From sequence record PZ445419.1: a stretch of DNA of 44,882 bases; one strand, given 5' to 3'. Each line of letters starts with the position of its first letter. Positions within the stretch are counted from its first letter, which is position 1. The notes under the pieces are model-generated. The model was not told where the DNA came from, did not search any database, and was given only the letters and a program-made list of their open reading frames with translations. The DNA is from a phage. The translations under genes were made by a program, and so were the position numbers. Shown in pieces: positions 35,159 to 36,472 of the stretch.

Positions 35159-35206
35159 TGTCTCGTCCTCTAAAAATAGGCCCGCAGATTAGCGGGCCGG
35201 AATATA

Positions 35207-35740
35207 TTAATCTTCCAGTTCGAAATAGGTTTCGACGATTTCTTTTAAATCTTTGTGGAAGTCTTCAACGTCGTCGTCTTCCAGCTTGGCGATGGATTTA
35301 ATTTCGAACGCGTCCAGCAGATCATCAAATTCGTCGTTCGCATCATCATCATCACCGCCTGCAATGATAGCGGCATACTGTTTGATTTCGTCGCGCATCT
35401 CTGCCAGCGGGTCGGCATCTTTCTTACCTTTGCCTTTCGCTTTTTTAGCCTTAGCCGGTTTTTCGTCTTCGGCGTCTTCGTCGTCGTCATCTTCTACGAC
35501 TTCTTTTTTGGCCTTACCTTTAGACTTGGTTTCTTTTGCAGCGCCTTTTTTCGCTTTAGGCGTATCTTCGACTTCGTCCTGATCATCGTCTTCGACTTCG
35601 GTCTCCGGCTTGGCCTTGCCTTTCTTAGCGGTGCCGTTTGCTTTCGGTTCTACGGCCGCGCCAGCAGTTTCATAATGCTTAGCGATGACTTCCAGTGCTA
35701 CTACGCCGCGAGTGATCAGGTTTACGATTTGCTCAAACAT
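35207..35740 (-). CDS. highly charged Lys/Glu/Asp-block protein (hypothetical; first gene of leftward operon)
   Basis: 177-aa ORF from ATG 35740 (GGAG RBS); alternating K-rich (KAKKAKGKGKK) and D/E-rich (VEDDDDEDAEDE) blocks; track ORF starts further upstream without RBS. Confidence 0.55.
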   Translation of the reverse strand: MFEQIVNLITRGVVALEVIAKHYETAGAAVEPKANGTAKKGKAKPETEVEDDDQDEVEDTPKAKKGAAKETKSKGKAKKEVVEDDDDEDAEDEKPAKAKKAKGKGKKDADPLAEMRDEIKQYAAIIAGGDDDDANDEFDDLLDAFEIKSIAKLEDDDVEDFHKDLKEIVETYFELED

Positions 35741-35936
35741 GGTATATCTCCGATTGGTTAAGTTTAGGTGTCGGCAGTTAACTTCGTCGGTGGCCTTAAC
35801 ATATTGCCAGGTTACGCGTTCTCCCGTTCGGGTAGTGGACCTGGTTATATAATCACGGTTGGGAATCCTGACACTTCGATCCGGCCCCTGCGTTGCCCCT
35901 CTCCAGTTTGCGTCCTGCATCCTGTCGACGGAGTGA

Positions 35937-35966
35937 ATGATAGATTGGTTGCAGGATGGGTGTCAA
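35937..35966 (-). promoter_or_regulatory. candidate leftward early promoter
   Basis: Minus strand TTGACA-18 nt-TATCAT with ATTGGTTGCA (35944-35953) in the spacer; about 190 nt upstream of the first leftward gene. Confidence 0.5.
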
Positions 35967-35977
35967 CAACTAATTTC

Positions 35978-36011
35978 AAAAAAAAAGCGCCGAGGCAAAA
36001 TGCGACGGCGC
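35978..36011 (-). terminator. orphan terminator-like hairpin in the divergent region
   Basis: Minus strand GCGCCG-13-nt loop-CGGCGC followed by nine T; lies upstream of the leftward -35 with no minus-strand gene to its right. Confidence 0.4.
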
Positions 36012-36082
36012 TAACCAATAAGAGACAATGAGACGGGAATTATTATTACACGCGTGCGCGCCCGTTTCAATATCCAAAGGAT

Positions 36083-36111
36083 TTGACACCATGCAGTTTT
36101 AGGTGTAGTTT
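36083..36111 (+). promoter_or_regulatory. candidate rightward early promoter
   Basis: TTGACA-17 nt-TAGTTT about 30 nt upstream of the HTH gene. Confidence 0.4.
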
Positions 36112-36142
36112 CGTTGGTCATTAACCAACAGGAGACTGAATT

Positions 36143-36472
36143 ATGAATATCAAAGAAGCAATTGAAGTGTTATCTAATGCAATCCGCGGCGAAGCGGGTA
36201 AATCCTGGTATTACACAAATGCGGTGGATACTCTGTTATTTGAAGTGTCCAGATTATCGCGTGCTGAGAAGGAGCTTACCGCGAAGCTGGAATTGCTCAA
36301 CGGCACGGCAGCAAGCAAGCTGCAAAAACACAATGAAGAAATGGAAGAATACAAAAAGCAGGTTATCCGTTTGCGCAATGAGGGAAAGTCATGGGCAATG
36401 ATCGCCGAGTTGACCGGAATTAATCAGAGCACAGTGCGCTCCTGGGTACGCAATAATAAAACTTCAAAGTAA
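36143..36472 (+). CDS. helix-turn-helix DNA-binding protein (putative transcriptional regulator)
   Basis: 109-aa ORF; C-terminal SWAMIAELTGINQSTVRSWVRNN resembles a sigma-70 region 4/LuxR-type HTH; RBS context GGAGACTGAATT. Confidence 0.55.
   Translation: MNIKEAIEVLSNAIRGEAGKSWYYTNAVDTLLFEVSRLSRAEKELTAKLELLNGTAASKLQKHNEEMEEYKKQVIRLRNEGKSWAMIAELTGINQSTVRSWVRNNKTSK

Follow-up and report, generated by a model that had tools for sequence, protein, structure and literature searches.

A candidate phage leader RNA family in front of the first gene of the early replication operon in Escherichia phage Oekolampad

Introduction

Among the structured RNAs described at the beginning of phage early transcripts, the put RNA of phage HK022 is a cis-acting, factor-independent antiterminator that consists of two stem-loops and spans about 70 nucleotides (nt). 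Other described systems close to the locus treated here are riboswitch aptamers, RNA II of ColE1, and the oriF/oriG transcripts of phage T4 with regard to RNA, and T7 Ocr as well as the acidic tails of single-stranded DNA (ssDNA)-binding proteins (SSBs) with regard to protein. The locus is situated in the genome of Escherichia phage Oekolampad (Bas18, MZ501095, Dhillonvirus), whose complete sequence of 44,882 bp constitutes the window, i.e., the whole stretch of DNA that was analysed (rotated by 551 nt relative to the record). It comprises a minus-strand gene for a protein of 177 amino acids (aa) and a long leader preceding it, which contains a conserved structured element.

As judged from sequence comparison, this element represents a candidate new, apparently undescribed family of cis-acting leader RNAs that is restricted to phages. 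The main value of the finding appears to lie in this leader, since members of the family are hidden as N-termini of "hypothetical proteins" or as unannotated spacer. As an overall explanation, two independent modules, the leader RNA and the 177-aa protein, may well be combined behind one early promoter, an explanation which we hold at slightly less than even confidence.

Results and Discussion

The leader and its flanking signals

Leader, gene, and flanking signals are arranged as follows:

35937-35966, minus strand: early sigma-70-type promoter TTGACA-18-TATCAT, 11 out of 12 consensus matches
35768-35932, minus strand: conserved structured leader RNA element of about 160 nt, supported by covariance model R1, covariation, and presence/absence
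35741-35769, minus strand: unstructured A/C-rich tail (ACACCUAAACUUAACCAAUC), then GGAG (35751-35748), read from the sequence
35207-35740, minus strand: 177-aa open reading frame (ORF) with stop codon, ATG at 35740
35179-35198, minus strand: intrinsic terminator GGCCCGC-UAAUCU-GCGGGCC plus UAUUUUU directly after the stop codon, a GC-rich hairpin with U-run

The promoter (35966-35937) is conserved in 18 out of 18 dhillonvirus loci. It places the predicted transcript start at approximately 35930-35934 and thus the length of the leader at about 190 nt, which is the length given in an initial annotation of this DNA made from the sequence alone; this part of the annotation is borne out by the near-consensus promoter. 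The outer stem P1 of the element starts within a few nt of the predicted 5' end. Covariance model R1 yields a single match in the window (175 bits, E = 7.6e-45), and each genome carries one copy. With its core sequence, the helices P1, Pc, P3, P4, and P5, and a position just after a sigma-70 -10 box, the window copy is a member of the family defined by this model.

Between P1 and the ribosome-binding site, other lineages possess a similar G-poor, A/C-rich tail with recurrent UUAAC or UCAAC. CUUAAC, CUUUAAC, and AUUAAC are among the repeated forms in these tails (35741-35769 here; loci L021-L059). The UUAAC/UCAAC tail partly resembles the 3' half of boxA (CUUUAACAA), without its GCUC part.

Due to the terminator following the stop codon, leader and gene are to a large extent a transcription unit of their own, from which read-through reaches the replication genes. 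This terminator is kept in relatives both with and without the leader element. Among close relatives its loop is inverted (TAATCT versus AGATTA) while the stem is unchanged (35179-35198; equivalents in L003-L019), and in CS16, L005, and L015 a 41-aa ORF is inserted between gene and terminator.

Distribution of the element and its independence from the gene

In an alignment of the upstream regions of the 18 dhillonvirus loci, the element appears as a block of about 150 nt; 14 loci possess it in almost unchanged form, while it is cleanly absent from the other four, i.e., it is found in about 78% of the dhillonviruses, and about 22% do without it. Promoter, ribosome-binding site, and gene are present in all 18 loci regardless of the element. 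With the element as a 157-nt query, a coverage of at least 80% was obtained for 136 records of the phage database, almost all of them dhillonviruses. At an identity of at least 99% the element is found in 82 out of 172 matching records, and the surrounding 1 kb reaches this level in two records, so that within the dhillonviruses its conservation greatly exceeds that of the adjacent DNA.

Outside the dhillonviruses, approximately 36 further records carry the core of the element at 77-94% identity. These carriers include Drexlerviridae (Tempevirinae), Sortsnevirus, Murrayvirus, and other enterobacterial siphophages, namely Changchunvirus PHB17, Hanrivervirus slyngel, Warwickvirus swan01 and relatives, Klebsiella phage KMI8, Sortsnevirus sortkaff and IME279, Murrayvirus Lumpael, Enterobacter phage Arya, Serratia phage MQ-4, Alux-21, and HeidiAbel_Bas97. 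In each of these phages it occupies a space of 100-700 nt between genes and is oriented like the neighbouring ones, and the ORFs that follow it are mutually unrelated and mostly of unknown function. A -10-like hexamer (TATCAT, TAATAT, TATAGT, CATAAT, or similar) is situated a few bases before the outer stem in nearly all variants; considering the 39 distinct upstream variants, most hexamers were found by a scan and the rest by eye. Thus no more than about 5 nt separate the predicted transcript start from the first nucleotide of the element.

The gene, in turn, occurs without the element. A distant homologue of the protein is preceded by a 40-nt leader that lacks it, in the same synteny. Since the element is shared by loci with unrelated downstream genes and is absent in front of this homologue, RNA and gene represent independent modules. 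The initial annotation, which treated the long structured leader as an attribute of this gene, was therefore right about the leader itself and mistaken about its attachment, as other genera share it in front of unrelated genes. The leader RNA is a portable "front end", locked to a sigma-70 promoter and placed by different enterobacterial siphophage genera before unrelated early genes.

No copy of the element was found in 5,426 complete E. coli genomes, and a search of 185,579 species genomes returned a single match on a phage-sized contig. Metagenomic matches are mostly located on phage-like contigs of 39-52 kb, the others on short fragments; the element is the same in all 17. Searches for distant members with looser DNA patterns recovered only the set already found and chance matches. 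No Rfam match overlapped the element on its strand at E <= 10 (4,227 families, Rfam 15; window and Lumpael copy alone), ARAGORN reported no tRNA or tmRNA, and literature searches by sequence strings and keywords revealed no description of it.

Some records bear odd host or organism labels: MG065648 (Campylobacter phage A144), records labelled Acinetobacter or Pseudomonas, and QFQS01000013, a contig of a "Cereibacter sphaeroides" metagenome-assembled genome. These records are near-identical to dhillonvirus or Sortsnevirus sequence, so that contamination or mis-binning is probable.

Structure and covariation of the element

The element comprises the following helices:

35929-35922 / 35777-35770, minus strand: P1, outer stem
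35919-35909, minus strand: P2, hairpin with GGA loop
A35907-C35906 / G35782-U35781, minus strand: 2-bp helix
35899-35895 / 35794-35789, minus strand: Pc, junction helix with bulged A
35893-35891 / 35857-35855, minus strand: ACG/CGU helix
35888-35879 / 35872-35867 plus 35864-35861, minus strand: P3
35850-35846 / 35803-35799, minus strand: P4a
35844-35839 / 35812-35807, minus strand: P4b
35835-35823, minus strand: P5, loop GAAC

In the predicted fold, P1 encloses P2 and the 2-bp helix, followed by an invariant purine-rich internal loop; Pc then closes a three-way junction with the ACG/CGU helix and P3 as one arm and P4a, P4b, and P5 as the other. About 50 nucleotides are invariant, most of them in the junctions. 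The invariant internal loop (5' GGAGA, 3' GACGAA; 35900-35905 and 35782-35788) would fit the kink-turn (k-turn) rule, with a C-G-closed helix, the 3-nt bulge GAC, and tandem G.A/A.G beside Pc. The P5 loop is mostly of the GNRA type across the family, and together with the k-turn-like core loop it suggests tertiary folding.

Support for this fold is given by covariation. For a plain MAFFT alignment of 31 distinct sequences, RNAalifold predicted 28 pairs, 11 with compensatory changes; a pair count on the same alignment gave 29 pairs with 97.6% paired cells, of which 12 pairs were changed on both sides. The covariation score of 0.319 compares with a shuffle mean of 0.121 (0 out of 500 shuffles reach it) and with 0.016-0.073 in slid controls. 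A hand-curated alignment of 38 distinct sequences, which adds P1, P2, and P4a, comprises 50 pairs that are canonical in 97.7%, with 28 compensatory pairs versus 4-7 in shifted controls. The excess of G-U over A-C cells in this alignment (129 versus 10) identifies the strand and speaks for RNA instead of duplex DNA.

Examples of such exchanges are seen in P4b, which occurs as CCAGGU/ACCUGG, CCUGGU/ACCAGG, and CCCGGU/ACCGGG within the dhillonviruses and as CAUGAU/AUCAUG, CGCAC/GUGCG, CAUAAC/GUUAUG, CUAUC/GAUAG, and CAUUGG/CCAAUG in other genera. P3 shows exchanges at four positions, namely C-G to U-A, U-G to C-G to U-A, and G-C to A-U.

The gene start and the coding interpretation of the leader

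In GenBank the gene (bas18_0048) is annotated with 237 aa from an ATG at 35920, i.e., inside the leader. If this were correct, the leader would be coding, as it is annotated in several relatives as well. In 11 out of 19 loci the frame does stay open for 74-76 codons upstream and contains an ATG at -180 nt, and database entries of 207-239 aa exist, but in seven out of 19 related loci an extension of this type is blocked by frameshifting indels or by absence of the element. The extension is lacking in L006, L012, and L013, three closely related element-less dhillonvirus loci, whereas the fourth element-less locus, L014, retains a different in-frame ATG at -129. It is broken in L008 and L010 by a +2-nt indel just before the MFEQ start and in L016 by a -1-nt indel, and in the distant homologue L078 a stop codon directly upstream of the gene start rules it out. 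Furthermore, substitutions in the leader are paired compensatory changes in helices without a codon-like pattern, and in other genera the same sequence precedes unrelated genes at varying distances. A coding leader is thus extremely improbable.

The ATG at 35740 follows 7 nt after the ribosome-binding site GGAG (35751-35748), whereas the ATG at 35920 lacks such a site and sits between P1 and P2. Due to this difference and to the seven loci that cannot make the extension, the 177-aa ORF is the true gene and the 237-aa form is an over-extension. In this respect the start chosen in the initial annotation was better than that of GenBank.

How the leader may act

We consider it somewhat probable that the leader acts in cis by binding something conserved in the Enterobacteriaceae host, thereby setting the amount of the downstream message or protein. 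A small ligand is a possible, if doubtful, partner and would make the leader a riboswitch-like sensor. An RNA that engages RNA polymerase (RNAP) or the ribosome in a put-like or enhancer-like manner is given marginally less credence, and the two cannot be ranked with confidence. In broader terms, it is tentatively conceivable that the element is the core of a new class of complex-folded RNAs, confined to Enterobacteriaceae siphophages, and serves as a portable front end of the early transcript, either as a riboswitch for a host metabolite or defence signal or as a self-processing or RNAP-modifying RNA.

Several observations weigh against a regulatory RNA of this kind or against details of its model. 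No expression platform (terminator or helix sequestering the ribosome-binding site) was recognised after P1 in any lineage, and as the downstream genes are unrelated, a classical riboswitch is weakened. Consistent intrinsic terminators after the element are missing in slyngel, Lumpael, and PHB17, and the terminator after the gene is retained in element-less dhillonviruses; both weaken a put-like antiterminator. Since about 22% of the dhillonviruses lack the element, it is not essential. The transcript start is placed by promoter consensus only, and the fit of P1, P2, and P4 to the model was made manually in the curated alignment. The approximately 40 distinct sequences are few and phylogenetically clustered, so that several covariations may be single events. 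Finally, the folding energy is unremarkable, with a minimum free energy z of +0.54 versus shuffles; the term "structured" in the initial annotation therefore holds with regard to covariation, but does not extend to unusual thermodynamic stability.

Two further explanations have to be considered. As the element sits between the divergent helicase-primase gene and the replication operon, adjoins primase or helicase genes in several other phages, contains G-rich runs (GGAGAGGGGCAACGCAGGGG), and is followed by an AT-rich stretch in dhillonviruses, it could be associated with an origin, i.e., give rise to a G-rich structured transcript that forms an R-loop or a replication primer in the manner of ColE1 RNA II or T4 oriF/oriG. 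However, the neighbourhood of replication genes says little, because most early genes of small siphophages are replication genes. The element-less dhillonviruses do not differ in their replication genes, the element is common to phages that replicate with different machinery, and neither iterons nor DnaA boxes were seen, which makes an origin function improbable. A little less remote, though still unlikely, is an element without specific ligand or partner that only protects the 5' end in a passive, cap-like manner or is left over from a mobile promoter cassette. P1 near the predicted 5' end is the classic set-up against 5'-end-dependent decay, the element is dispensable in some relatives, and its presence/absence pattern and spread across genera fit the horizontal transfer of a promoter-leader cassette. 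For mere stabilisation, on the other hand, a terminal hairpin alone would suffice, whereas in genera whose flanking DNA cannot be aligned about 50 nucleotides of the junctions and loops are invariant, the peripheral helices covary and thus preserve a specific architecture, and the k-turn-like core loop with the mostly GNRA-type P5 loop would point to tertiary folding.

Architecture of the 177-aa protein and its family

The protein contains 28 K, 28 D, 25 E, and 24 A, with a net charge of -23 and an isoelectric point of 4.45. The block-charged pattern noticed in the initial annotation is real: charge segregation amounts to z = 6.0 for the whole protein and 6.7 for the linker, and none of 2000 shuffles reaches the observed value. 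Three parts are distinguished:

35663-35740, minus strand: codons 1-26, conserved N-terminal amphipathic helix (MFEQIVNLITRGVVALEVIAKHYETA); AlphaFold2 helix at residues 2-26
35417-35662, minus strand: codons 27-108, disordered block-charged linker with K/A-rich alternating with D/E-rich blocks; AlphaFold2, homologue lengths, charge segregation
35210-35416, minus strand: codons 109-177, acidic three-helix bundle, net charge -20; AlphaFold2, invariant columns, charge count

The N-terminal part, previously described as a globular segment, is predicted to be a single helix (residues 2-26). It is nearly invariant (MFEQIVNLITRGVVALE.IAKHYE; MLEKFL.LLERFVVAHELIAAN in distant relatives), with M1, L8, R11, A15, E17, I19, and A20 unchanged, and persists in relatives down to about 25% identity. 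Residues 25-105 show a predicted local distance difference test score (pLDDT) below 50. The last 69 residues, taken in the initial annotation for a further acidic block, are confidently predicted as a three-helix bundle (helices 111-128, 132-144, and 155-173; pLDDT of about 90). This bundle is the best conserved part, with 26 invariant columns comprising basic and hydrophobic as well as acidic residues.

Within the protein, conservation is lowest in the K/A and D/E blocks. Among homologues within the genus, total length ranges from 115 to 180 aa with charged blocks gained or lost, and homologues of 115-124 aa have no acidic blocks at all, which speaks against a function based on these blocks as envisaged earlier. 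At the protein level the linker behaves as a variable-number repeat of KPAK.KKAPAKGKAKKEVVEDDDD.AEDE units with 0-3 copies (homologues P0001-P0120); Tandem Repeats Finder called no long-period repeat in the linker DNA of this genome (35417-35662). Due to the variable number and sequence of the blocks, they are regarded as a real but poorly constrained tether, and the helix and acidic bundle as the functional parts.

The plan of helix, linker, and C-terminal domain of about 70 aa is common to the 18 dhillonvirus copies and the distant homologues. The family consists of 169 clusters at 90% identity, and an exhaustive profile search of 1.84 billion representatives matched 60 clusters only, all of 115-212 aa and of the same plan. 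The sole family match is PHROG 3127 ("unknown function"; E = 4.8e-50, residues 1-177 versus profile positions 1-178). Pfam, NCBIfam, and PDB sequence searches returned no relative above threshold, and fold searches yielded generic three-helix bundles and uncharacterised phage homologues, e.g., gp46 of Edwardsiella phage eiAU. The protein family is thus small, confined to phages, and without known relatives by sequence or fold.

Possible roles of the protein

The gene is always the first of the replication/recombination operon, and a terminator follows it in most relatives. Considering that the operon position is conserved, that a terminator follows the gene, and that a catalytic motif is lacking, we tentatively infer an abundant non-enzymatic adaptor of the replication/recombination module. 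The protein is predicted to consist of an N-terminal helix, a flexible polyampholyte tether that differs in length among homologues, and a strongly acidic bundle in which many charged residues are invariant. The bundle would dock on a basic DNA-binding surface of a partner in the replication module or host, the N-terminal helix would mediate self-association, and the linker would set the reach only. Against this reading it has to be mentioned that no partner and no homologue of known function were found and that the fold is generic.

The protein could also act as a DNA mimic or decoy and thereby inhibit a DNA-binding enzyme of the host, for example RecBCD, a restriction enzyme, or a nuclease used in defence. 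This would agree with a first early gene, with a protein probably made in excess over the downstream genes because of the terminator, and with a small helical domain of net charge -20. Nevertheless it is unlikely. Sequence and fold searches revealed no similarity to Ocr, ArdA, Gam, or other mimics, and many invariant residues are basic or hydrophobic instead of forming a uniform acidic array. In addition, dhillonviruses are reported to be rather sensitive to restriction of types I and II in comparison (PMC8594841), and published escape screens with dhillonviruses named other genes. Binding of DNA by the K/A-rich blocks in the manner of histone H1, or condensates driven by the polyampholyte linker, by which replicating phage DNA would be organised, is rated lower still. 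The K/A/P-rich stretches do resemble H1-type tails, charge segregation is extreme, and even the shortest homologues retain a basic patch right in front of the C-terminal bundle, but the blocks number zero to three among close relatives, the basic ones are variable and can be lost, the linker sequence is not conserved, the overall net charge is -23, and Pfam and NCBIfam searches gave no match to the HU, IHF, H-NS, or H1 families. Consequently the histone-like, DNA-mimic, anti-restriction, and host take-over readings put forward in the initial annotation are unsupported by positive evidence.

Known dhillonvirus genes in phage defence were compared with this gene as well. The defence triggers Ksap1 (74 aa) and the RAZR trigger (portal) as well as the escape genes for Retron-Eco8 and Borvo (SSB and polymerase) are different genes.

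Genomic neighbourhood

A control region between two divergent transcription units holds the leader and the promoter of the 177-aa gene. The plus strand carries a small helix-turn-helix (HTH) gene and a helicase-primase gene. The minus-strand operon consists of the 177-aa gene, two small ORFs, and genes encoding a PD-(D/E)XK nuclease, an ssDNA-binding protein, and DNA polymerase I, in this order; the promoter-proximal position claimed previously is hence correct. A homologue with about 40% identity occurs in identical synteny, heading the operon beside a divergent pair of HTH and AAA_25 helicase-primase genes, with genes for a PD-(D/E)XK nuclease, an Enc34-type ssDNA-binding protein, and PolA located downstream.

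Another promoter-like site (TTGAAA-17-AATAAT, its -10 being TG-extended; within 35975-36070, minus strand) is located directly upstream of the early promoter, and at a distance of approximately 25 nt it is followed by an intrinsic terminator that is strong (GCGCCG…CGGCGC and nine U). Together they would yield a transcript of about 60 nt resembling a small RNA (sRNA). This sRNA-like unit is kept in 18 out of 18 dhillonvirus loci including those without the leader element. It is overlapped by the GenBank ORF bas18_0049 (36 aa), which looks doubtful.

The motif AACCAA(T) occurs in four copies within 35700-36200 versus 0.39 expected, and three out of five genome-wide copies of TAACCAA fall within the same region. 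The sites are located in the promoter spacer, the leader tail, the sRNA-like unit, and at the start of the divergent gene. AACCAA(T) may serve as operator of the divergently encoded HTH protein of 109 aa, for which weak matches only were obtained, to sigma-70 region 4 and IS630-type HTH.

Significance

Structured RNAs that are similarly large and conserved are seldom found. The element apparently escaped description because many records annotate it as protein-coding or leave it blank, and the present data correct a recurrent annotation error, i.e., "hypothetical proteins" of 207-239 aa that fuse RNA to gene. The element is present in E. coli phages that are easy to grow and genetically tractable, among them at least the three BASEL phages Bas14, Bas18, and Bas97, and natural relatives with and without it provide ready controls. 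If it does sense a host factor or modify transcription or translation, several phage genera would share a control device of early infection, which would also represent a compact regulatory part for engineering. For the phage-specific protein family that heads the replication operon, the real architecture is now defined.

Comparison with known systems

The putL/putR RNAs of HK022 resemble the element in being multi-stem RNAs of phage early transcripts just downstream of promoters for host RNAP, and put acts regardless of the genes that follow, as the element would do. In contrast, the element spans about 160 nt with a three-way junction and bears no obvious resemblance to put, and the terminator at this locus persists in element-less relatives, with none consistent found in three other genera.

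With riboswitch aptamers the element shares size, junction-centred conservation, covarying peripheral helices, and a location in the 5' untranslated region, as well as a GNRA-type loop and a putative k-turn-like internal loop. It differs by the lack of an Rfam match and of a recognisable expression platform, by its position before mutually unrelated genes, and by its occurrence in phages only, as it was never found in the bacterial chromosomes searched. RNA II of ColE1 and the oriF/oriG transcripts of T4 are likewise promoter-driven and structured, lie within a replication gene cluster, and contain G-rich segments; the element, however, is dispensable in about one fifth of close relatives, shows no origin features, and has no sequence relationship to them.

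Considering the protein, T7 Ocr and other DNA mimics are similarly early, small, helical, and strongly acidic, but there is no fold or sequence match, the acidic domain is a predicted 69-aa three-helix bundle with mixed invariant residues, and host range data on dhillonviruses do not suggest restriction evasion. The acidic tails of SSBs (E. coli SSB, T7 gp2.5), which are interaction hubs, share with the 177-aa protein an acidic region with an aromatic C-terminus (…YFELED here), a flexible linker, and a coding position in a replication/recombination module. Here, by contrast, the acidic part is a predicted folded bundle and not a short tail, an OB fold is absent, and a separate SSB-like gene is located in the same operon.

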